IMG/VR virus record: IMGVR_UViG_3300028888_000051
Location: 99,384-163,383 of that record
DNA: 64,000 nucleotides
Reading direction: 5' to 3' (one strand)
Origin: a virus
Lineage: Duplodnaviria; Heunggongvirae; Uroviricota; Caudoviricetes
Part shown: in pieces, positions 1,056-44,048 of the stretch
How the letters are laid out: each line of letters starts with the position of its first letter
Position numbering within the stretch: the first letter of the stretch is position 1
The notes under the pieces: model-generated
What the model was told of the DNA's origin: nothing
The model's input: the letters and a program-made list of their open reading frames with translations, nothing else
Databases searched by the model: none
Position numbers and translations under genes: made by a program

Positions 1056-2303
1056 ATGATTAAAATAGGTGCTAGAAAATGCATCATTAATGAACTAACA
1101 GAAAAAGATACATCAGAATTTTTAAATAAATATCATAGACAAAAAAATATAACAGCTGTATATCATATAGGTTTGATATATAATTCAATTTTAATTGCTG
1201 TAATGACCTTTGGATATCCTCGCTATAATAAAACATATCAATGGGAATTATTGAGATTGTGTTTTCATCCAGATTATAGGATAATCGGAGGGGCTACGAA
1301 AATGTTTAATTATTTTATAGATACTTATAAACCGTGTTCAATAATTTCATATTGTGATTATAATTATTTTACTGGTGATGTATATAATAAATTAAATTTT
1401 GAATTGTTACGTATATCAAAAGGTAGCAAAATTTGGTATAAGAATGATAAGTTTATAACTGATAATCTTCTTCGTCAATTTGGTCCAGATAAATTGATAG
1501 GAACTAATGATGGTAAAGGAACTGATAATGAAAAAATAATGTTACGTGAAGGTTGGAATTATAAAATTGATGAAAAAGGACAAGGAACTTATATATGGAA
1601 CGGAAATGGAAAATTTGGATATATTTATTTAATTACAGATACTCTGCATAATAAACAATATATTGGACAGCATCGTGGTTATAAATTGAATGATAACTAC
1701 TATGGATCAGGAAAATTGATTTTAAGTATAATTAAAAAGCACGGTACATCAATATTAAAAAGAGAAATAATAGATTATGCTAGTTCACAAAAAGAATTAA
1801 GTGAAAAAGAAATATTTTATATAAAAAAATATAATACCTTATCACCGAATGGATATAATTTAACATTAAGAGTACAAGGAATAGATGCATATATACCACA
1901 TGAAGCATCTGAAGAATTGAAGCAAAAAAGATCTGAAAATGCAAAAGAATTGTGGAAAAATGAAGAATATAGAGAAAAAATATCAAAATGTAGAAAAGAA
2001 ATGTGGAAAAATTCTGAGCATAAAGAAAAAATAAGGATTTCTATGAAAGAAAGAATGTCAAAAACAGAAGAGAAGCAAAAACTAAAAGATGGTTTATATA
2101 AATTTCTTTCTGATGAAACAAAGAAAAAAGAATGGAATAAAAAAAGAACTGAAGCAACTAATACTATTGAATATAGAAATAAATTATCAAAAGCTGCTAA
2201 AGGCAAGCACTGGTTTAATAATGGCAAAATATCTGTTTTAAGATATAGTATTCCAGAGGGAGATGAATGGTTACCAGGTAAGCTATGTGTAAAAAATAAA
2301 TAG
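1056..2303 (+). mobile_element. Free-standing GIY-YIG homing endonuclease with N-terminal Hef/Mom-like GNAT-fold domain
   Basis: GYIYLITD...YIGQH...YYGSG GIY-YIG core; N-terminal WELLRLCF..GGATKMF..IISYCD; Lys/Glu helical region; C-terminal HWFNNG..PEGDEWLPGK. Confidence 0.8.
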
Positions 2304-3911: not shown

Positions 3912-4646
3912 ATGGGAATATTAAATATCATGAGTTTACGTAAACAATTAAAAGAAGCTGCATTAAATGTATTACAAGAAGGTACAGATAGCTCTAAAGA
4001 GATTTTAACTCAAAATATTGTGAATTCTTTTGATGAAATGGGCATGGCTACTACAAATCCTGGTGAATTTTCACAAGAAGAAATTACAGATAAAAATAAT
4101 TTAACTAATGTATCAGCTATGTCTAACGATACAGATTTCGAAGGCAAAATTGAAAATCCTCAAGCTAATGAAGCAGAAGATATATTAGATGTTGGTACAG
4201 ATTTAATGCATACTCTTGTAGACATATCTGATAAATGTGATAAATGTAATGATGAAGATAAAAAAGCTGAATTACATATATTAGAATTCGGTGAATCTTC
4301 AATGAGTAAAATTATAGATAAAGTTTTAAGTGGTAAAACATGTGAACAATTTTTACATTCTTTAACTGAATCTGATTATGCAGGTCCTCGTGATTGGAAT
4401 CCAGATACTCGTATTAATGTAGCAAATGTTCTTACTACTTTAAAAAGAGAAATAGGTAAAGGTTCAGAAGGTATTCATGTAGATCAAGTTTATGATGACC
4501 AGCATAATGATGCATACAAGGTATCTCAAATTGATAAAAATTTATTACCAAAAGAACTTAAAGTAGAAACTATTGTTTTAAAATTAGGAGATGATAATAT
4601 TTATTATAAAGATAAAATGAGTAATACTTATCCTCTTCCAAAATAA
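3912..4646 (+). CDS. Acidic hypothetical protein, candidate internal head protein (start may be 3930)
   Basis: LKEA, LQEG, LTES motifs; GGGA upstream of ATG 3930. Confidence 0.4.
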   Translation: MGILNIMSLRKQLKEAALNVLQEGTDSSKEILTQNIVNSFDEMGMATTNPGEFSQEEITDKNNLTNVSAMSNDTDFEGKIENPQANEAEDILDVGTDLMHTLVDISDKCDKCNDEDKKAELHILEFGESSMSKIIDKVLSGKTCEQFLHSLTESDYAGPRDWNPDTRINVANVLTTLKREIGKGSEGIHVDQVYDDQHNDAYKVSQIDKNLLPKELKVETIVLKLGDDNIYYKDKMSNTYPLPK

Positions 4647-4670
4647 ATTATAAATACATATGATGTAAAG

Positions 4671-4699
4671 AAATCCTCAGAATTAACTGAGGATTTTTT
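4671..4699 (+). terminator. Rho-independent terminator
   Basis: Stem AAATCCTCAG/CTGAGGATTT plus T run. Confidence 0.85.
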
Positions 4700-4772
4700 A
4701 TATTAAAAACTATATTTATATTAAAAGTTCTATATAATAAGTTTTAATTTTTAATTTAAGAAGTGTATATCT

Positions 4773-5624
4773 ATGCGTTTTATTCCAAAGAAAAAAGAAA
4801 CATTAATAGAAGCTGAAGCTAATCCATTAGAAATTAGCTCAACAGAATTATCTTATGACGAAAAATATATTCAAGCAATAACTAAGGCAGTAGCGAGCGA
4901 AAGTGGTGCAATTGTTGAATATGAACAAATATTAGCATTAGAACCTCATATAAAAGAAAAAGGTCTTGTAGAAACTTTTCATGATACTTTAATTGATATT
5001 AAAGATGAAGAAATAAAACATCTTGCTCAATTAAATACAAAATTAAGTGAAACATCTTTTTTTAAAAATTCTTATGAAAAAGGTGTAGACGAAGCTAAAT
5101 CTGGAATAGATAAAGAAGAACAAAAAGAAAGTGTAGAATTAACTGAGTCTATTGAACGAATTGTTGAAAATGTTCCTCAAAATCGTACATATGATTCAGA
5201 TAATATTGCTCAAATTATAGCTGCTAAATATGAATTAACGGATGAACAATATGAAGATATTCTTAATTTATTTGATCCTTTTCACATTGATGAAATTTCT
5301 GCAGAAGATGTTGACAAAGGTTTGGAACGAGTCTCTAAAAAATATGAATTTACTCCAGAAGAGCGATTAGAAATCGAAAATGATATCATTGCTAATGCAA
5401 ATAATCCAATGGGAGACAGAAAAGAAGAATTTGATAGTGATATTAATTTTGATATAAATACTTTAGAAGATATATTAGAAAATCTTAATACTTATGCTGC
5501 ACAACAGCGTATTAAAAAAATAATAGAAGAACTAAAATCTATCGAATATAATGGTGAAAAAGATATAGCTTGGAATCCAAAATATTATGATATGAATAAA
5601 CATAAAAGAGGTTTAATACAATAA
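4773..5624 (+). CDS. Protein with N-terminal ferritin-like (two-helix, EncFtn-type) domain
   Basis: E43-x6-Y50 and DEE80IKH83 di-iron ligand pattern. Confidence 0.65.
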   Translation: MRFIPKKKETLIEAEANPLEISSTELSYDEKYIQAITKAVASESGAIVEYEQILALEPHIKEKGLVETFHDTLIDIKDEEIKHLAQLNTKLSETSFFKNSYEKGVDEAKSGIDKEEQKESVELTESIERIVENVPQNRTYDSDNIAQIIAAKYELTDEQYEDILNLFDPFHIDEISAEDVDKGLERVSKKYEFTPEERLEIENDIIANANNPMGDRKEEFDSDINFDINTLEDILENLNTYAAQQRIKKIIEELKSIEYNGEKDIAWNPKYYDMNKHKRGLIQ

Positions 5625-6004
5625 TGTCTATTTCTACAGTATTATATGAAGCATTAGATCCATTAAATAAAATTGCAAACAGTATAGTTAAAAAACTTAA
5701 CTATATTGAATCTAGTCTTATTTTAAAATCTAAAAATTTAGATGATTCTTTATCGTATTTAGATAAAACTGCTTCGTATCATTCAAATGCTTATGATGAA
5801 TTAACAAAAGAACAACAAAAAGAAGTATTACATCGGATATGGAATAAAATTCATAATATTTTAGGTAAAAGTGAACAAGAAATAAATGAAGAAAAAGCTG
5901 ATTTAGAACAAATAATATATGATTATTTAAAAACAAATTATTGGTCAATGTATCCATTAGAAAAAACCGCTAAAGAATTGGCAGATAAAATTAAAAATAA
6001 CTAA
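5624..6004 (+). CDS. Hypothetical helical protein
   Basis: 126-aa ORF coupled to the upstream stop; VLYEA at the N-terminus. Confidence 0.6.
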   Translation: MSISTVLYEALDPLNKIANSIVKKLNYIESSLILKSKNLDDSLSYLDKTASYHSNAYDELTKEQQKEVLHRIWNKIHNILGKSEQEINEEKADLEQIIYDYLKTNYWSMYPLEKTAKELADKIKNN

Positions 6005-6021
6005 TTTTAAGGAGAGTTAAG

Positions 6022-6918
6022 GTGGGATTAATTGGTCCGTCTGGTACTATTAAAGCAATTACTAGACAGTTAGAAAACATTAAAGTTAGAACAAAATTAT
6101 CAGATCGTGCTTTAGATTTGATTATACAAACTAATTCTAAAGAAAAACAATCTTTAGAAACTGATAAATTATATGATTTAGTTTATATTTTAAAAGAATC
6201 AGAAAATAATCCTGATTTAATAATGTCTTTACGTTCTATTGAAAAATTTTGTACTTATAGAAATGTATGGATTATTGGATATAAACCTTCATGGTTAAAA
6301 AATGTAAAATATATTCATACTAATCAAAAGGGTAATACAAAATGGACAAATAGCTGTATAAATTTTAAAGCAGCTTGTGAATGTGAAGATATATCTGAAA
6401 ATTTTATTTTAATGAATGATGATTTTATTGCATTAAGACCTATATTAGATTGGAAACAAGCTTTAAATGTTTGTTTAGGTAGTATAACAGATGAATCAAC
6501 ACGTTATCGTAAAAAATCAAAAGCCTCAAAATGGCAAAATGGATTTATATATGCTGAAAAATTATTAATTGAATGTCATGCAAAAACATGTTATAATTAT
6601 GAAACACATTTACCGATGATAATTAATAAAACAAATTATCTAAAATTCTTAGAAATACCGGCTATTAAAAAATTTATGCAAACATCAAATGTATTACATA
6701 AAAGATCTTTATATAAAAATTTATTTCCAGAACCAGATACATCTTTTCCACATAAAATAAAAGATGTAAAAATAAATTTAGGATATGATTTTACTGACAA
6801 TTATTTAAAAGAAAATTGGATTAGTGTATTTGATAATGTTATAGGAGATTATTTAAAATTTCCAAAAATAAATAAATTTTTAAATAATATGTTTCCTAAT
6901 AAATCTAATTTTGAATAA
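6022..6918 (+). CDS. Stealth-like sugar-phosphate transferase (GTG start)
   Basis: DLVYI..LIMSLRSIEK..VWIIG.KPSWL..FILMNDDF matches Stealth CR1/CR2 style; AAGGAG RBS. Confidence 0.6.
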   Translation: MGLIGPSGTIKAITRQLENIKVRTKLSDRALDLIIQTNSKEKQSLETDKLYDLVYILKESENNPDLIMSLRSIEKFCTYRNVWIIGYKPSWLKNVKYIHTNQKGNTKWTNSCINFKAACECEDISENFILMNDDFIALRPILDWKQALNVCLGSITDESTRYRKKSKASKWQNGFIYAEKLLIECHAKTCYNYETHLPMIINKTNYLKFLEIPAIKKFMQTSNVLHKRSLYKNLFPEPDTSFPHKIKDVKINLGYDFTDNYLKENWISVFDNVIGDYLKFPKINKFLNNMFPNKSNFE

Positions 6919-7092: not shown

Positions 7093-9114
7093 ATGGCAAG
7101 CTATAGATTTCCTGGCGTATTTCCATCAATTAGAGATCAAAGTGGTGTTGTAGCGAATAATACTATTACTTCTGCTGCTTATGTTGGTGAAAGTGAATAT
7201 GGTCCAGTTTTCAAACCAACATTACTTGCTACGTTGCAAGATTATACAGATAGATTTGGTAAATTAAATTCTAGATATGGTTACGCTGGATACTCATTAG
7301 CAGTTGCAGCAGAAACTATTAATCAACATTATTTTGTACGTGTTGTACCAACAGGTAATCCTGAAAGTTCAAATCGTTCAAATGATGCTACTTGGGCAGC
7401 AGCTACAGTTTTAGTTGATTGGGATGAAGGAGAATCTGCTCCTGTTTCTAATGGTTATTATTATGAAGAAATTACAGCTGCTGAAACAGCACGTGATGCA
7501 GGTTTAGATTGTGGATTATTTAAAACAGTTGAAGAAGATCCAGAAACACATGAATCATCAATAGTATATGATGTAGATTCAGCATTTAAAGTTGTTGCTA
7601 CAAATCCAAATAATAGAGATTTATATATTACTGTAGCAGATTCAACAATTAATGAAAATAGAGCATATGCTGTTACAGCAGAAACAACTTTAGTTCCTAG
7701 TGATGAATCTGGTGAAGAAAATGATACAACTGTGGTAATAGTTACTGTTCCAGCAGATGATTTTAAAGATACTCTAGTAGGTGATAAAATTGTTGTTTCT
7801 AGAATGACAAATACTGCATTAAATGGTACATTTACTATTGAAGCTATTGAAATTGAAGACAATAATGCTAAAATTTCTTATATTGTTAAAGGTGTTCAAG
7901 AAACAGCTGGTGATGCTAATGCACGTGTAGGTATGTATCCTGCTAAAAATCAAACAACATTTTCTTTATCAGTAGCAGAAAAAGTTGGACGTGTTATTAC
8001 AACTTTAGAAACTTTTGAATATTGTACTTTATATAATGCACAAGATAATTATGGTAATTCAACATTTGTTGAAGATGTTATTAATGGATCTTCAAATTAT
8101 ATTCAAGTATTTGTAAATAAGAACTTTACAGAATTTGGTCCAGATGCTGATCCTGATGAAATTATTATTCCACAAAATGTTTCTAATGTAAGATTAACTG
8201 GTGGTAAATCTGGTACTTGGACAAATGCTGGAGATAAATATAAAGCATTGTGTGATGCATGGGAATTATTCCGCGATCGTTCACAAGTTACAGTATCATT
8301 ATTGATGAACTCAGGTTATGTATTAAAAAATAATGTTTCATACCAAGCAAAAATGTTAGAAATTGCTGAAGCTCGTCGTGATTGCTTCTGTTTATTTGAT
8401 ATTCCAATGACAGAAACTGATTATGAAGATGCAATTGATTGGAGACGTAATATTCAAGGATTTAATACTTATCGTGCAGCTTTGAGTTCACCATGGGTTA
8501 AGACTTATGATTCAGTTCAAGGACGTGCTAATTTCGTTATGTGTCCTTCTGCATATGTTGCAAAAATTATGGGTGCTTATGATCCATGGAAAGCTCCAGC
8601 TGGTTTAAATCGCGGTGTATTAACTGCTTCTACTGTTTCTCCTACAGGATTAACACAGTATTATAATGATACGCAAGGTGGTAATTTATATACTGATAAT
8701 CAAATTAACTGTATTATTAGAAGTACAGCTTCTGGTTATGTTAACTGGGGTCAAAGAACATTACAAGCTAAACCTTCTGCGTTAGATAGAATTAATGTTG
8801 CTCGTACAGTAATTTATATTGAAACAGTATTACGTGATGCAGCTCTATGGCATGTATTTGAAAACAATACAGCTTACGAAAGAATGCAAATTACTTTACA
8901 ATTTAATGCTTTCTTAGATCAAGTACTATCTTCTGAAGGTATTCAAGCTTACCGCGTGATTTGTGATGAAAGTAACAATACACCACAAGTAATTGCTAAT
9001 AATCAATTAAAGATTGATATTATCTTGTGGCCAACATACACTTCAGAATACATTATTATTACATCTACTGTTGCCGGTGCTGATACATCAGTTACTATTT
9101 CAACAAGTAATTAA
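7093..9114 (+). CDS. Contractile tail sheath protein
   Basis: YRFPGVF N-terminus; WKAPAGLNRG; WGQRTL..LDRINVARTVIYI..VFENN..VICDESNNTP C-terminal sheath motifs. Confidence 0.95.
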   Translation: MASYRFPGVFPSIRDQSGVVANNTITSAAYVGESEYGPVFKPTLLATLQDYTDRFGKLNSRYGYAGYSLAVAAETINQHYFVRVVPTGNPESSNRSNDATWAAATVLVDWDEGESAPVSNGYYYEEITAAETARDAGLDCGLFKTVEEDPETHESSIVYDVDSAFKVVATNPNNRDLYITVADSTINENRAYAVTAETTLVPSDESGEENDTTVVIVTVPADDFKDTLVGDKIVVSRMTNTALNGTFTIEAIEIEDNNAKISYIVKGVQETAGDANARVGMYPAKNQTTFSLSVAEKVGRVITTLETFEYCTLYNAQDNYGNSTFVEDVINGSSNYIQVFVNKNFTEFGPDADPDEIIIPQNVSNVRLTGGKSGTWTNAGDKYKALCDAWELFRDRSQVTVSLLMNSGYVLKNNVSYQAKMLEIAEARRDCFCLFDIPMTETDYEDAIDWRRNIQGFNTYRAALSSPWVKTYDSVQGRANFVMCPSAYVAKIMGAYDPWKAPAGLNRGVLTASTVSPTGLTQYYNDTQGGNLYTDNQINCIIRSTASGYVNWGQRTLQAKPSALDRINVARTVIYIETVLRDAALWHVFENNTAYERMQITLQFNAFLDQVLSSEGIQAYRVICDESNNTPQVIANNQLKIDIILWPTYTSEYIIITSTVAGADTSVTISTSN

Positions 9115-9136
9115 AATATTGAATTTATTTTATTTT

Positions 9137-9167
9137 AAGGGACTGACTAAACAGTCCCTTTTTATTT
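9137..9167 (+). terminator. Rho-independent terminator
   Basis: Stem AAGGGACTG/CAGTCCCTT plus T run after the sheath gene. Confidence 0.85.
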
Positions 9168-9178
9168 TAAAAAACTTA

Positions 9179-9207
9179 TTTACAAATTTGAATCTAGTTA
9201 TTATAAT
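9179..9207 (+). promoter_or_regulatory. Sigma70-like promoter TTTACA-N17-TATAAT
   Basis: -35 at 9179-9184, -10 at 9202-9207, upstream of ORF 9250. Confidence 0.7.
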
Positions 9208-9249
9208 GACTACAATAGTTATTGGTTCTAATACTAAAATGGAGAAACA

Positions 9250-11277
9250 ATGATGACAAAAGATGAGTTTGTAAAGATAGTTAAAAAATTCAATGAAGAT
9301 AAGATAAAATTTAATTGGCAAGAAATAATAAATCAATTTAAAAATTTTACTACACATGTTTATGATAAATATATATTAGATAAACCAAATTATTACACAT
9401 TTAATTCAGGAAAAGAATTTAAATATTGGATTAATCATTCAGATGATTTAAATTTTTGTGAAAATAGATTTTGTCCTATTTGTGGAAAATTTATAACTAA
9501 AATTGTTAGAAAAGATTGGTTTTATGCCAAAGCATGTTGTGAAGAGCATTCTGCACAATTAGCTATCACAAATGCTCAAAAAACAAATATTGAAAGATAT
9601 GGTTATAAAAGTCCAATGTGCAATACTGATGTACAAGAAAAAGTGCATAAAAATTGGAAAAACAAATCTAAAGAAGAAATCGATAATCATGTTAATAAAA
9701 TAAAAAATACTAAATTAAAAATTCACAATGATGAAAATTATAATAATCGAGAATTGGCTAAAGAAACATGTTTAAAAAGATATGGTGTAGAAAATCCATT
9801 ACAAACAGAAAAAATAAGAGAAAAAGTAAAAAATACAAACTTAGAGCGCTATGGAACAATTGCTCCTATACAAAATCCTATAATTAAAGCAAAAATTGAA
9901 AAAACAACAAAAGAACGATATGGCATTTCAAAAATCGGTCATGTAAAAGAAATTAGAAATAAAATAAATAATACAATGAATGAAAAATATGGAGGCAGTG
10001 GCTTAAAAAGTAATGTTATCAAAGAAAAAATAAAAAATACAAACTTAGAGCGCTATGGAGTTCCTTATCCGACTCTAGATTTAGAAATAATGAAAAAAGC
10101 TAGACAAACATGTATTAAAAAATATAATTCAAAGTATCCTCTTCAAAATAAGGATATATATCATAAAACAATTAAAGCAAAAAAAGAAAATGGTACACTT
10201 AATACATCACATAATTTTGAAGATATGCTTATACAATATCTAAAAGATACTTATCCACAATATACTATTTTAACACAATATAATGAAGATCCACGCTATC
10301 CATATATGTGTGACTGCTATATAAAAGAACTAGACTTATTTATTGAGTTTCAGGGCTCATATTTTCACAACTGGAGGCCTTTTGATTATTCTGTCACTCA
10401 CATTAAAGAATATGAAGAAATGATTACTCATGGAGGCCAAAAAGAGACCATAGCAAATGTTTGGCGTTACAAAGATACTGAGAAGCGTGAATGTGCCAAA
10501 AGAAATAATCTAAATTATCTTGAATATTGGGAAAAATTAATAATTTTACCAGAAGAAATTCGAAATAATCAAAATAATTTAATTTTATATTATCAGCAAA
10601 AGTTATTTTATGCAAAAAACAGAGAAGAATTATTTGATCCAATTAAAAGATGGGAATATTATAAAAATGCTATTGAATATAGTAATTTTTATAAAAATCA
10701 TAGTTATGTATCACATTTAACTCTTTTACGTAGACCTTATTTTTTACATCAAATTGGTTATTCTTCATTTAATATCAAACTTTGTGAATTTATTGATAAA
10801 AAATATACTATATATGATCCTTGTGGTGGATGGGGACATAGATTATTAGGCTTTAAAAATCATAAAAACTATATTTATAATGATATTAGTTTACCTACTT
10901 TACTCAACTGTAAAAAATTAGCAAAAGACCAAAATATTGTTAATTGTAAGTTTTATAATCAGGATGCCGCTTTACCAATAAAAGATGAATATGATATAGT
11001 ATTTACATGTCCACCGTATTTTAATAAAGAAATTTTTACAAAAGCTGGAGCTGAAAATTATACTGAAGAACAATTTATAAAATGGTGGAATAAAGTATTA
11101 AATAACTTAAAACCAAAAACTGGTGAAATTTATATAGTAATAAATTCAAACTATTTAAAGTATTTTGTATCTAATGATTATAAATATGAAATAGTAAATA
11201 CATCTTTACGTAAATCTCATTATCATAAAAACACAAAAGAGTCAAGTGAAATTATAGTTAAATTCATCAAGTTCTAA
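9250..11277 (+). mobile_element. Homing-endonuclease-like protein (CPIC, K/R-YG repeats, PD-(D/E)xK/Vsr-like nuclease) fused to an amino-DNA methyltransferase
   Basis: Repeats TNxERYG; DCYIKELDLFIEFQGSYFH; MTase motif I YDPCGGWG and motif IV FTCPPYF. Confidence 0.75.
9827..10059 (+). repeat. 29-bp exact direct repeat inside the coding repeats
   Basis: TAAAAAATACAAACTTAGAGCGCTATGGA at 9827-9855 and 10031-10059 (KNTNLERYG). Confidence 0.9.
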
Positions 11278-11282
11278 TTATC

Positions 11283-11444
11283 ATGAAAGAATCTACTAAA
11301 GAAAAATTAGAAATATTAGATACAATTCTTAATATAATCCTTTCTATTGGAGCAATAATAGGATTTATTCTTACATATAAGTCTGGATTTTTTCATAAAT
11401 TACATAAAGTAATTGCTTATTTTCATAATCAGATAGATTTATAA
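11283..11444 (+). CDS. 53-aa single-TM peptide (absent from the ORF track)
   Basis: MKESTKEKLEILDTILNIILSIGAIIGFILTYKSGFFHKLHKVIAYFHNQIDL. Confidence 0.5.
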   Translation: MKESTKEKLEILDTILNIILSIGAIIGFILTYKSGFFHKLHKVIAYFHNQIDL

Positions 11445-11560
11445 TATTCTGGTTTATTTTTTTGTCTATTTATAAAAATTTGGTTTAATATTATACTTTT
11501 GTATAAGTCTTTGTCTATTTATAAACATATCTATTTGATCTGAAATATAATCATATAATA

Positions 11561-11589
11561 ATTATATAAATACAATTTAATAAAGTAAA
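11561..11589 (-). promoter_or_regulatory. Orphan sigma70-like promoter TTTACT-N17-TATAAT
   Basis: -35 at 11589-11584, -10 at 11566-11561; only very short ORFs downstream. Confidence 0.55.
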
Positions 11590-11596
11590 ACTATAT

Positions 11597-12766
11597 TTAT
11601 CTATTATGTTTAGATTTATTGTTTATAATAAATTTATCTGATAATTTATTATTACCTTTAAAATATAATTGTCTATCTTTTTTAATTTCTTCGTCATTAG
11701 TTACATAAATTCTAGAAACATCTGTTACTCCGTATTTATCATTAACATAAAATAATGTTTGTGATGGATAAGCTGGCTCTAATTTTAAATCTCTGGCATA
11801 TTGTGAATAACCAACAGTAGTTCCATTAGCTATAGTATGTTCTAATTGCATCGGAGTATGAAAATGTCCTATTAATAACCAATCTATTGGTTTACCTATT
11901 TGTGCATAAGCTTGACGGGTTTTATGTTGACCTCTAGCGATTGTTGCAGAACAGCCAATAAAACCTTGCCCACCTCTACTTCCTATTCTATCACCATGAG
12001 TTGCAAGAAAATTATGACCATTTAATTCAAAATAGGCTTCACCAGATTTTGGAGTGTAAAAAGTAATGTTTTTGTTATCTTCTAATTGTTTTTGTACTAT
12101 AGCTGCAACTAATGAATCATAATTATGTTCACTAAGGCCTTTAGATTGTGGTTTTTTAGTTGTTCTTCCATGATTACCCATTACAGAAATAACCCAAACT
12201 TTATTAAATTCTTTTTCAAAGGTTTTTATCATTTTTACTTTTTCTGTAGCAACTTCCATACATGCATTTATTGGAGTTTTATCATTAGTTTCTTTTAATT
12301 CATCATGTATATCACCAGAAATATCATCACCTAAAAAACAAACAACTATTCCTTTATTAATTTTACCTTTTGCTCTAATTTTTTGTATAGTGTTATTTAT
12401 TAATCTATCCCATCTAGCCTTTGCTACTTCTGGTGAATAACAATTACCATTTGGTACTTCTCTTGGATTAACATTTTCACCATAGTGTAAATCAGAAACT
12501 ATTAATACAGGTATACTATTTGAAGTACTATTTTCATTTTCTATTGGAATAGTCCATTCAGGAATAATGGGATCTGTTGTAACAAGACCTAATGTTTCAT
12601 CTAGTCTAATATTTAATTTTGCAATTTCTTGTTGAGCTTTTGCATAATCTTTTAATAATTTATTTAATTTATTTTTATAAATTTCAAGATATATATTATC
12701 TTTATCTGAAAGTTTTTCAATTGTTTCCTCTACTTTTTTTTCAAAATTTTTTTCATCAAATGCCAT
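11597..12766 (-). CDS. Calcineurin-like metallophosphoesterase with N-terminal coiled coil
   Basis: SDLHYG, LGDDISG, GNHG, THGD, GHFH motifs. Confidence 0.85.
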   Translation of the reverse strand: MAFDEKNFEKKVEETIEKLSDKDNIYLEIYKNKLNKLLKDYAKAQQEIAKLNIRLDETLGLVTTDPIIPEWTIPIENENSTSNSIPVLIVSDLHYGENVNPREVPNGNCYSPEVAKARWDRLINNTIQKIRAKGKINKGIVVCFLGDDISGDIHDELKETNDKTPINACMEVATEKVKMIKTFEKEFNKVWVISVMGNHGRTTKKPQSKGLSEHNYDSLVAAIVQKQLEDNKNITFYTPKSGEAYFELNGHNFLATHGDRIGSRGGQGFIGCSATIARGQHKTRQAYAQIGKPIDWLLIGHFHTPMQLEHTIANGTTVGYSQYARDLKLEPAYPSQTLFYVNDKYGVTDVSRIYVTNDEEIKKDRQLYFKGNNKLSDKFIINNKSKHNR

Positions 12767-12953
12767 TTCATTTCCATTTAAAAAAATTTAGGTAAATTAG
12801 ATGAATTTCATTAATTAGAACAGGATAAAAAAATATTCAATTTGATATCCCTATTAGTATAATTTTATAATATATTCATATGTTTTTAGTTCTAAGTTCT
12901 ATATTTATAAGAATAATAGTTTCCTCATAATATAAATCATATATGTATATAAA

Positions 12954-13562
12954 ATGCTAGGTAAATTAAATGAAATTAGAGCATTACAGGATCCTGTAAA
13001 ACAATCACAATGTGAATTTGTAATACAAGATACTCCTGGTTTGCTTTTGAGTAAATTAGAACAGAAAATTGTAGGTACTTTGTCTGGTAATAAGGCTTGT
13101 GCATCATCGCGTGAGTTAAGATTACGCTGTACTTCTTATTCTTATCCTGGTCCAAAAATTGGTCAAACTTCTTTAAACATTATGGGACATAGACGTAAAT
13201 TAGGTACTATACAAAATAAATCTGGAATATGGAAATGTAAAGTTACAGAAGATTATCAAGGCTCTGTACTTAATGTAATTCAGGCATGGTGTGATTTGAT
13301 TTTTTCAAATGTTACTGGAACTAGATTACCATCTATATTATATGTTACTTCTTGCAATGTATTACTTGGCGGTAGTACAGAAGGTGGTAAAGTAAGAGAT
13401 AGTAATTTAAAAAGACGTTCAATACATCTTATGGGATTTTATCCAATAGGTTATACAGTAAATGAAATAGATCCATCTAGCTCTAATCCAATAGATGTTG
13501 ATATTGAATTTAACTATGATTATTATGCCGATAACAATTATAATCTTTTATCACACTTTTAG
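12954..13562 (+). CDS. Tail tube protein (gp19-like)
   Basis: LRLRCTSYSYPG..IGQT..LGT..WKCKVTED..IQAW..GFYP..DIEFNYDY; first gene of the tail/baseplate operon. Confidence 0.7.
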   Translation: MLGKLNEIRALQDPVKQSQCEFVIQDTPGLLLSKLEQKIVGTLSGNKACASSRELRLRCTSYSYPGPKIGQTSLNIMGHRRKLGTIQNKSGIWKCKVTEDYQGSVLNVIQAWCDLIFSNVTGTRLPSILYVTSCNVLLGGSTEGGKVRDSNLKRRSIHLMGFYPIGYTVNEIDPSSSNPIDVDIEFNYDYYADNNYNLLSHF

Positions 13563-13577: not shown

Positions 13578-14231
13578 ATGTATGGTTATATTTATAAAAT
13601 TACAGTTAATGATTCGAGTAGTACATTATATAATTGTTATTATATAGGTAGGCATGTTTCAAAAAAGTTTGATGATGGTTATTATGGTAGTGGAGTAATA
13701 ATAAAAGATTATATAAATAAAAAAGGAACAGATTTTTTAAAAAAAGATATACTATGTATATGTGAATCAGAAAACGAATTAAATGAAAAAGAATTAAAAA
13801 GTATTGGAAATTTATATCAAACTGATTCTTATTTTAATGGTGGCAAATGTTTGAATATGAAAGCTGGTGGTGATTGTGGATTAGCTAATGATGAAGCTAA
13901 ACGCAAAATGTCAATAGCTACATCTGGTTCAAATAATGGATTTTATGGTAAACATCATTCTCAACAGTTAAAAGACTATTATTCTGAATTATTTAATGGT
14001 GAAAATAATCCAATGTATGGTAAACATCATTCCCAAGAAGCTAAAAATAAAATTCGTAATTCTCATTTAGGTACAAAACATACTCAAGAAACTATTATAA
14101 AATATAGAAATATTCGTCAGGGCTTGCATTGGTGGCATAAAGGATATGAACAAAAATTTTGTAAAGAATGTCCAGGTAAAGATTGGAAAAAAGGACGTTC
14201 TTTTATTAAAAAAGTAACAATAGAGGAGTAA
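13578..14231 (+). mobile_element. GIY-YIG homing endonuclease with two NUMOD3-type repeats
   Basis: GYIYKIT..YYIGRH..YYGSG; FYGKHHS and MYGKHHS. Confidence 0.9.
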
Positions 14232-43250: not shown

Positions 43251-44048
43251 TTATGACCAAGAAGCTTGATATAATACAGAATGGTTTTTAATTGAATCAG
43301 TTTCTTCTTTTAACTTATCAAGACGCTTTTGTAAAGCATCAGTAGAAATTTGAAAATCAGCATCAAATTTTACACCATCACGTGCTTGAATTATACTTTC
43401 AATAAATCTATATGAGATTAATTTACAAGCAAAATCTATTTTACTCAGCTCTATATATTCTGGAGTATCGTATCCCCAAAGTGTATGAAAAGTTAATTGG
43501 CCAAGGCCAAAAGGTTGTGTAATATAAACTCTTTCATCTTCTGTAGATATTGTAAATACTGGTTGACCTGTTGCTAATTCATCCAATGTATTTTTATATA
43601 ATAATCCTGTAATATCTGTATTTGTTGTTACTGAAGCAGGATTTGCAAAACCAAACATCTGTAGTGAAAAAAGGGAAGGATTAGAATATTGTGTAAAATA
43701 TGGTCTTTCTCCATGCATTATACCAATAAAATAAGCATGATCTAAATCTTTAGCTGCTGGAGTACTTCCTGTTAATAACTCATCAAAAGTTACATAGGTT
43801 GCTCCATTTTCAGTATGAGGAGGAGTTACACCAGACCAACTAAATGTATCATCAGCATTACTTGTAGTACTATATGTAGTAATATACATACTTCTTCTTG
43901 GAAAATATCTATAATAATCCATTGTTCCAAGTAAAATAGCTCTTTCTCTTAATAAATTTTCTTTTTCAGAAATAGCAAGATTAGGATTGGCTAAGTCTAA
44001 ATCTAAAGCAGCTTTAATTGTATTCATAATAACATTTCTGTTTGCCAT
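43251..44048 (-). CDS. Neck/head-completion protein (gp13-like)
   Basis: AILLGTMDYYRYF..; C-terminal LQKRLDKLKEE helix typical of adaptors. Confidence 0.45.
   Translation of the reverse strand: MANRNVIMNTIKAALDLDLANPNLAISEKENLLRERAILLGTMDYYRYFPRRSMYITTYSTTSNADDTFSWSGVTPPHTENGATYVTFDELLTGSTPAAKDLDHAYFIGIMHGERPYFTQYSNPSLFSLQMFGFANPASVTTNTDITGLLYKNTLDELATGQPVFTISTEDERVYITQPFGLGQLTFHTLWGYDTPEYIELSKIDFACKLISYRFIESIIQARDGVKFDADFQISTDALQKRLDKLKEETDSIKNHSVLYQASWS

Follow-up and report, generated by a model that had tools for sequence, protein, structure and literature searches.

A homing-type nuclease and a predicted amino-methyltransferase in a single open reading frame of a phage genome

Free-standing homing endonucleases are thought to spare the genome that carries them because their target is disrupted or polymorphic there, and the relationship between homing endonucleases and restriction-modification systems has long been discussed on structural grounds. 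In a 64-kb stretch of phage DNA (hereafter the window; bases 99384–163383 of a 227-kb IMG/VR phage record estimated to be 95% complete), we found that a single open reading frame (ORF), P0001, joins a homing-type nuclease to a putative methyltransferase. The closest described proteins are the Hef-type enzymes of phages, which belong to the EDxHD family, in which a modular DNA-binding region precedes a Vsr fold with conserved Glu, Asp, His and Asp residues (PMC3239194); in I-Bth0305I, whose catalytic domain is structure 3r3p, the catalytic residues are E170, D196, H213 and D222 (PMC3239194). Hef of phage U5 and the “Hef-like” F-LimIII, F-LimVII, F-LimVIII and F-LimX of Dickeya phage LIMEstone1 are of the same kind (PMC2988022, PMC3296691). 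P0001 is built like these enzymes, its modular DNA-binding N-terminus preceding a Vsr-fold nuclease in which E, D, H and D are conserved, and its gene, like theirs, is free-standing, is flanked by conserved phage structural genes and possesses a predicted promoter. Unlike Hef-type proteins, which stop soon after the nuclease core, P0001 continues for a further 240 residues, and these are the methyltransferase. By fold, motif and repeat region, we place P0001 in the Hef/EDxHD homing-endonuclease family, as a member with an added methyltransferase.

Two other kinds of system bring a nuclease and a methyltransferase together. The type IIG, IIC and IIL enzymes (MmeI, BpuSI, Eco57I; PMC2582602, PMC3817140) also hold in one chain a nuclease of the PD-(D/E)xK superfamily ahead of an amino-methyltransferase; motif I precedes motif IV in them and in P0001 alike, and self-protection by the enzyme's own methylation, which is their principle, is what we would propose for P0001 by analogy. 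The first-pass annotation, made from the letters of the window alone, had remarked on this likeness, but as a statement of kinship it fails: no recognition domain follows the methyltransferase, P0001 ending some 85 residues past motif IV with only Rossmann core there in the model; neither N6_Mtase nor Eco57I is matched in Pfam at E values up to 1; and the nuclease is of the Vsr fold rather than Mrr-like PD-ExK, the BpuSI nuclease matching our model with a Z score of only 4.7. Recognition by P0001 is presumed to occur through its N-terminal homing-type repeats, and its gene, in a lytic-type phage, behaves as a mobile insertion; in both respects it differs from these enzymes. In the ShiLan element (PMC11855218), a homing nuclease and a phage methylase likewise share one locus, with an HNH nuclease inside a DNA-methylase gene, but that nuclease is an out-of-frame insertion that homes to the methylase gene, not a co-translated partner as in P0001.

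We are highly confident of the identity of the parts of P0001 (Table 1), for which motifs, Pfam and PHROGs matches and AlphaFold2 folds agree; the single ORF, its CPIC motif, its repeats, its nuclease core and the DPCGGWG and TCPPYF motifs all lie where the first-pass annotation had placed them. CPIC (residues 75–78, nucleotides 9472–9483) is completed to a zinc-ribbon-like pattern by C96/C97 and H100, in a region where the family alignment has the consensus P.C..CGK...Y...C...C, and the repeats that follow carry (R/K)Y(G/N) at residues 116, 177, 200, 223, 246, 268 and 291. P0001 matches Pfam DUF7487 (PF24308) over two stretches with 103.9 bits (cut-off 27; E = 1.6e-29) and PHROGs families 3339 and 12131, both designated “homing endonuclease”; in a tblastn search of 50,697 GenBank phage records, its residues 13–427 matched homing-endonuclease genes, including those of Lak megaphages, with matches also in Dickeya, Klebsiella, Escherichia and Campylobacter phages. 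DUF723, DUF4379 and CapR are repetitive zinc-finger DNA-binding modules found in phage homing endonucleases (PMC10448857). The zinc motif and seven-repeat array of P0001 match the DNA-binding regions of homing endonucleases. An array of seven repeats suggests long, rare target sites.

Table 1. Features of the P0001 locus, in window coordinates.
Feature	Position (nucleotides)	Strand	Evidence or remark
Tail-sheath gene, 673 residues	7093–9114		directly 5' of fusion gene
Intrinsic terminator, end of tail-sheath transcription unit	9137–9160	+	left edge of inserted cassette
Sigma70-like promoter TTTACA-N17-TATAAT	9179–9207	+	11/12 consensus positions
First GTTCTAAT octamer, phage promoter-like	9225–9232	+	25 nucleotides before fusion ORF start
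GGAG Shine-Dalgarno sequence	9241–9244	+	5–6 nucleotides ahead of ATG
P0001, single 675-residue ORF, homing-type nuclease and methyltransferase fusion	9250–11277	+	no internal stop
Zinc-ribbon-like motif C75-x2-C78 ... C96/C97-x2/3-H100	9451–9552	+	sequence
Seven ~23-residue (R/K)YG repeats, DUF7487	9562–10179	+	presumed modular DNA-binding region
Vsr-fold (EDxHD/Hef-type) nuclease core, residues ~318–430	10201–10539	+	alignment and AlphaFold2 model
S-adenosylmethionine-dependent amino-methyltransferase module (predicted), residues 436–675	10555–11274	+	motifs, AlphaFold2 fold, 565 clusters
Helical N-subdomain of methyltransferase module	residues 436–515		ahead of Rossmann core
Motif I, DPCGGWG	10816–10836	+	Rossmann core
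Motif II, YIYND	10870–10884	+	Rossmann core
DA motif	10963–10968	+	Rossmann core
Motif IV, FTCPPY	11002–11019	+	Rossmann core; TCPPYF begins at 11005
Second GTTCTAAT octamer	11271–11278	+	overlaps stop codon 11275–11277, 12 nucleotides before 53-residue gene; right edge
53-residue single-helix ORF	11283–11444		right-hand flank of insertion

In the nuclease core, a 55-member alignment shows conservation of 90% or more at each of S320, E324, Y350, P351, C354, D355, Y357, E366, H373, W405, D409 and K412, and E324, D355, H373 and D409 fit the EDxHD composite motif, with a one-to-one equivalence to the residues of I-Bth0305I suggested by their order and spacing. An AlphaFold2 model of residues 290–435 (predicted local distance difference test, pLDDT, 86) was compared with 48,161 representative chains, and its best match was E. 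coli Vsr (1cw0; Z = 7.8, root-mean-square deviation 3.2, 109 residues aligned); other top matches were Vsr-like RAP domains and a putative restriction-endonuclease domain, and the catalytic domain of I-Bth0305I aligned over 79 residues with Z = 6.3. The best match returned by Foldseek was also Vsr (1vsr; probability 0.93, E = 0.059). These Z values are moderate, yet Vsr-like folds head the list, and the modelled core has the Vsr-like fold that characterizes EDxHD homing endonucleases.

The C-terminal domain is a variant amino-methyltransferase, and on the AlphaFold2 model its 240 residues make up an intact predicted S-adenosylmethionine (SAM)-dependent enzyme. That model (residues 436–675; pLDDT 86, predicted template-modelling score 0.85) has a helical N-subdomain and then a class-I Rossmann core, with the glycine-rich motif I and acidic motif II by which amino-methyltransferases are recognized. 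Its closest folds are TrmN (Z = 17.2), Trm14, Trm11, METTL5, RsmC, RlmKL and PrmC, the matches to TrmN, Trm14, Trm11 and METTL5 having Z scores of 15–17 over 158–174 aligned residues at 12–18% identity, and the best structural matches all bear a (D/N)PP(Y/F) motif IV. In a library of viral structures, the neighbours were a 747-residue protein from an uncultured phage, together with others that bear the name DNA methylase or N4-cytosine methyltransferase. Invariant or nearly so among some 235 relatives are Y-D-P-C-G-G-W-G-H-R, Y-I-Y-N-D, D-A and F-T-C-P-P-Y-x-N-x-E-x-Y. The context of FTCPPY resembles the PROSITE N4-cytosine signature, T-S-P-P-Y, except for the change of Ser to Cys, and we regard this as a lead only. 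P0001 did not match Pfam N6_N4_Mtase (PF01555; cut-off 26.7 bits), and sequence searches of solved structures, with the single protein or with a profile, found no methyltransferase. Orphan phage N4/N6 DNA methyltransferases, which unlike P0001 have no nuclease, match its C-terminal domain weakly but significantly (tblastn E from 3e-7 to 3e-3); these matches include ParB-methyltransferase fusions, Listeria phage B054 gp77, Bacillus phage G gp294 and Staphylococcus phage Alsa. The cultured Staphylococcus phage Alsa_2 (L088; OR354821.1:14873–15859) encodes a 328-residue family member annotated “DNA methyltransferase”, which belongs to the replication module and is flanked there by short DnaB-like ORFs and by split SbcD-like ones.

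The two catalytic domains have diverged less than the part that precedes them. The nuclease core of P0001 shares 72–79% identity with those of P0005, P0006 and P0008, and the methyltransferase 67–73%, against 36–59% for the zinc and repeat part and 36–47% for the repeat array itself, the fastest-diverging part of the protein. Because the nuclease core and the methyltransferase are conserved far above the DNA-binding part, selection seems to act on both catalytic domains, and the drift of the array is what a homing enzyme would be expected to show. The invariance of the methyltransferase motifs in the family argues likewise that both activities are selected for.

P0001 is one ordinary member of a large, unstudied family. 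Its close relatives P0002–P0008 (620–740 residues; from ENA, Logan and JGI assemblies) share its domain order and are fused in seven of seven cases. HMMER, run exhaustively over 1.84 billion cluster representatives, matched the module to 565 protein clusters at E ≤ 1e-3 and 268 at E ≤ 1e-10 (clusters counted at 50% identity), almost always at the C-terminus, so the fusion is no rarity. Among the 235 module-bearing proteins retrieved, a Vsr-type core lies just upstream of the methyltransferase in 124, and other nucleases take that part in fewer (HNH in 20, canonical PD-ExK in 9–13, LAGLIDADG in 3); about 27 have only a short N-terminus of helix-turn-helix (HTH) type, and about 26 stand alone, some of them perhaps fragments. 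Pfam, run on 177 members, adds DUF723, DUF4379, NUMOD3, HTH and Sigma70_r4 modules. Members without a nuclease keep DNA-binding modules, either HTH or zinc motif plus DUF7487 repeats (e.g., P0124), which fits a DNA substrate reached by way of those modules. In a FastTree phylogeny of the methyltransferase domain (225 rows; local support values only, with many forks unresolved), at least 13 switches of nuclease type were counted, as compared to about 31 with shuffled labels; on this tree, the pairing of nuclease and methyltransferase is inherited within clades yet has arisen or been swapped repeatedly.

The same partnership is found in two-gene form. A search of IMG/VR with the module profile found 80 loci, some of them near-duplicates that inflate the counts, with 84 module ORFs; 25 of these are fused to a recognised nuclease, and 26 are separate genes that start between −97 and +3 nucleotides from the end of a nuclease ORF on the same strand. 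In locus L044, a 464-residue zinc/DUF7487/Vsr-core gene (4511–5905) ends where a 283-residue methyltransferase gene (5905–6756) begins; in locus L026, a 255-residue HTH-HNH gene (4788–5555) overlaps a 312-residue methyltransferase gene (5545–6483), an arrangement that recurs on contigs of several metagenomes. These cassettes show a conserved partnership, like that of restriction and modification genes, and because they recur naturally they argue for functional pairing rather than artefact. The first-pass annotation had held that separate genes in relatives would expose the fusion as a frameshift artefact; distant relatives do have separate genes, but for the reason just given the artefact does not follow. 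At L044:4511–8520, after a capsid-like gene, the Hef-like gene, the methyltransferase gene and a Hef-like fusion gene stand in tandem, and the third of these appears by eye to carry, next to its Hef-like nuclease, a domain resembling a Mom-like one that we describe below.

The architecture is visible in databases, since ESM Atlas clusters are automatically named “DUF7487/DNA methylase domain-containing protein” and “DUF723/DNA methylase domain-containing protein”; relatives derived from NCBI are named only “hypothetical protein”. A literature search, with subscription journals mostly outside its coverage, returned no paper that describes or tests the fusion. None of the GenBank phage records searched by tblastn spans the methyltransferase and nuclease parts together, and a typical fused member, P0052, found only its nuclease half in that collection and no cultured carrier of the fusion.

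Comparison with related genomes suggests how the gene came to its place. In relatives L008 and L009, whose sheath proteins are 74% identical to that of the window, the gene lies directly after the sheath gene; in L006 (sheath 66% identical), the order is sheath gene, terminator hairpin, GTTCTAATTAATC-ATG and 53-residue gene, with nothing between, and the 157-kb record that holds L006, of which 66% was covered, contains Hef-like genes and no methyltransferase module. By this comparison of loci, the fusion gene behaves as an insertion between the sheath gene and the 53-residue gene. The latter is a real, conserved gene, with an 83% identical counterpart (10085–10246) in L006 in the same place after its sheath gene, and since GTTCTAAT stands at the stop codon before the 53-residue gene, as in L006, the insertion spans approximately 9161–11270. 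A megablast search with 9000–11600 found no match among GenBank phages. In L009, the region downstream of the fusion gene (5070–5880) is a homologue of the window gene at 43251–44048, 32 kb away here, so that the fusion gene marks a break in gene order, as has been described for nuclease genes that lie at boundaries of recombination (PMC10448857).

The inserted gene has its own terminator-promoter junction, as the first-pass annotation had noted. The terminator, a 9-bp stem with five GC pairs followed by a T run, is the sole terminator-like site in 8900–13100. Sigma70-like matches are not rare in the window (45 versus 36.7 expected), and it is position that recommends the one listed in Table 1. 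GTTCTAAT is enriched, with 15 matches versus 4.5 expected and none of 100 shuffles reaching 15; sites include 3871, 7043, 9225, 11271, 12814 (−), 21849, 34202 (−) and 43175 (−). Because most copies lie 12–90 nucleotides upstream of gene starts, on the coding strand, GTTCTAAT is a candidate phage-specific promoter element; its position is kept in relatives before the sheath gene and before the 53-residue gene, and L008 and L009 bear GTTCTATAAT where the first octamer would stand, ahead of their copies of the gene. The related sequence GTTCTATA, which occurs elsewhere in the genome, is not enriched in the window by itself, nor is GTTCTAWA. The stop codon of P0001 does lie within one of these GTTCTA copies, as had been observed earlier. 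The fusion gene thus has both host-type and phage-type promoter-like signals; promoter choice in the homing-endonuclease genes of T4 is treated in a section of PMC2988022.

We tentatively propose that P0001 is a free-standing, mobile Hef/EDxHD homing endonuclease that protects the genome carrying it by putative methylation, in the manner of a restriction-modification system, a proposal that we hold to be nearly as probable as its negation. The nuclease would cut alleles of related phages that lack the gene, and repair would copy the gene in. The tethered methyltransferase would methylate N4-cytosine or N6-adenine in or near the nuclease site on the carrier genome, and virion DNA as well as hemimethylated, newly replicated DNA would thereby be immune to the nuclease. 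Such an element would follow restriction-modification logic with parts made for homing, and it could target a sequence that its own genome retains. Family members with an array and a methyltransferase but no nuclease might have a methyltransferase aimed by the array, or might be derivatives that confer only immunity. That the carrier would protect itself by methylation, as the first-pass annotation had supposed, is plausible. In favour of the proposal stand the conservation of both active sites, the repeated fusion or adjacency of the module with nucleases of several folds, the presence of the gene in some relatives and its absence from another, and the lack of any other N6/N4 or Dam-type methyltransferase among those sought in the 227-kb genome.

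Several observations weigh against this proposal. In a fused enzyme, the nuclease and the methyltransferase would reach an incoming unmethylated genome equally, and discrimination would therefore need inherited methylation. Motif IV is C-P-P-Y rather than (D/N/S)-P-P-(Y/F/W), and its Cys is shared by all 121 aligned sequences. P0001 matches nothing in NCBIfam and no methyltransferase model in Pfam, and among solved structures the closest folds belong to amino-methyltransferases that act on tRNA and rRNA instead of DNA. In the clade P0001–P0008, conserved residues of the helical subdomain are swapped (NR to NA, GFKxSG to RPYFLH), although the catalytic motifs are retained despite these replacements. 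Sheath-protein identity, taken in 70-column blocks, gives no sign of co-conversion, since it does not rise toward the nuclease gene in carriers relative to non-carriers, a comparison that informs little either way. Finally, stand-alone module proteins of 270–300 residues occur, and the module may therefore have a specificity of its own, separate from the nuclease site.

This last point leads to the view that the methyltransferase is a passenger, an ordinary orphan enzyme of phage type that methylates DNA at a short sequence of its own and shields the phage from host restriction enzymes, carried as useful cargo that stabilises a selfish gene and spreads along with it, in which case the methylated site would be unlinked to the nuclease site. 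The stand-alone members, in phages and giant viruses, bear automatic names that make them N4-cytosine DNA methyltransferases; the helical N-subdomain, given its strong conservation throughout the family, could be a built-in recognition part; and the module is the sole amino-methyltransferase detected in the genome, a search of all 227 kb having found no other of the PF01555 (N6/N4) or PF02086 (Dam-type) kind. However, in most members the module is tied to nucleases or to homing-type DNA-binding arrays, and the nuclease-less forms keep arrays that a general anti-restriction enzyme would not need. We consider this view unlikely, if by no means negligible.

Alternatively, one could envision a module that does not protect at all but serves the nuclease, positioning or activating it as a sensor of SAM or as a base-flipping clamp on DNA, with little or no methyl transfer of consequence. 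SAM is known to stimulate cleavage by type IIG enzymes (PMC3817140), and a motif IV that starts with Cys would be in keeping with such a role. On the other hand, the invariance of motif IV and of N-x-E-x-Y in about 235 proteins goes beyond the needs of SAM binding, and the module is also found without any nuclease, so we regard this role as improbable.

P0001 could also have been domesticated for phage exclusion. It would then no longer home but would cut unmethylated DNA, whether from competitor phages or from the host, and methylation would spare the genome that carries it. The sigma70-like and phage-type promoter-like motifs of the gene, and its retention at the same locus in three diverged relatives, would accord with this. 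Yet a related genome has the site empty, the DNA-binding array diverges fast, like those of homing enzymes, and the long, rare sites suggested by seven repeats are unsuited to bulk degradation; for that reason the attack on host DNA raised in the first-pass annotation is left without support, and exclusion as a whole has, in our judgment, a distinctly small probability.

We see a slim chance that RNA (tRNA or rRNA) or protein, rather than DNA, is the substrate of the C-terminal domain. TrmN/Trm14, Trm11, METTL5, RsmC and PrmC, which head the list of folds and thus lend this idea its weight, share with P0001 the Rossmann core and the PPY of motif IV, and a few relatives match RsmD-like or RlmKL-like Pfam models weakly. 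P0001 differs from TrmN-type enzymes, however, in its CPPY motif IV, its extra conserved helical N-subdomain and its DNA-directed context, the module having DNA nucleases and DNA-binding arrays as its fusion partners or neighbours; more of its relatives (10 of 177, best E = 4e-7) match the N6_N4_Mtase DNA methylase model, all below threshold, one such match (in P0125) starting at motif IV and running onward; and its neighbours among viral structures carry DNA methylase names. Last, an assembly or frameshift artefact joining two genes, to which the two-gene forms of distant relatives might seem to point, is ruled out for all practical purposes, as is the accidental fusion considered earlier, by the seven close relatives, independently sourced and all fused, and by the more than 120 family members (124 of 235) with the same order of nuclease then methyltransferase.

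Other homing-type genes accompany P0001 in this genome. The window has a G+C content of about 26%, and its structural genes are T4-like. A 217-residue gene at 13578–14231, with NUMOD3 repeats (6.6e-17) and, by eye, a GIY-YIG-like N-terminus, is another free-standing homing-type gene within the tail module; it directly follows a 202-residue gene (12954–13562) that we assign to the tail tube by eye, with no Pfam match. The gene at 11597–12766 (−) has its own GTTCTAAT at 12814 (−) and is not present after the sheath gene in L006. Elsewhere in the genome (G000:C1 ~218601–220550; L002:1129–3078) lies a 649-residue Hef-like protein (DUF7487, 2.6e-55) whose C-terminal 185 residues are 44% identical to the N-terminus of a 415-residue GIY-YIG protein of the window (1056–2303), and that N-terminus matches Pfam Mom weakly, below the cut-off (E = 0.004). 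This second fusion has the same zinc/DUF7487/nuclease scaffold as P0001, but its modifier, if the sub-threshold match to the GNAT-fold Mom is to be followed, differs from the methyltransferase of P0001 in fold and chemistry. Two more homing-type nucleases of this phage thus bear a putative DNA-modifier domain, and, with P0001 included, the putative DNA-modifying domains to which its homing-type nucleases are joined are of two different kinds.

What is new here is the combination of two known kinds of protein, a nuclease and a methyltransferase, together with the definition, for this locus, of a relative with an empty site, the boundaries of the insertion and the octamer. The interest lies in the general phenomenon rather than in this locus: the family is large, with 565 clusters and at least four nuclease folds, and CPPY is a variant of the amino-methyltransferase active site. 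It is possible, though we think it rather doubtful as a general account, that a single, dedicated methyltransferase module has been taken up time and again, by fusion or as the neighbouring gene, by homing endonucleases whose folds are unrelated. The resulting “homing-modification” units would mark their carrier as self, so that the nuclease might aim at a sequence still present in its own genome, with the nuclease-less derivatives serving as immunity genes against the matching nuclease; this would amount to a second, independent origin of restriction-modification logic, in competition among phages and not between host and phage. Long-site nucleases with a matched, site-directed methyltransferase might also find practical use. 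If the proposal made here for P0001 is true, a cognate methyltransferase would give homing endonucleases an epigenetic means of self-avoidance, and the line between homing endonucleases and restriction-modification systems would be blurred.

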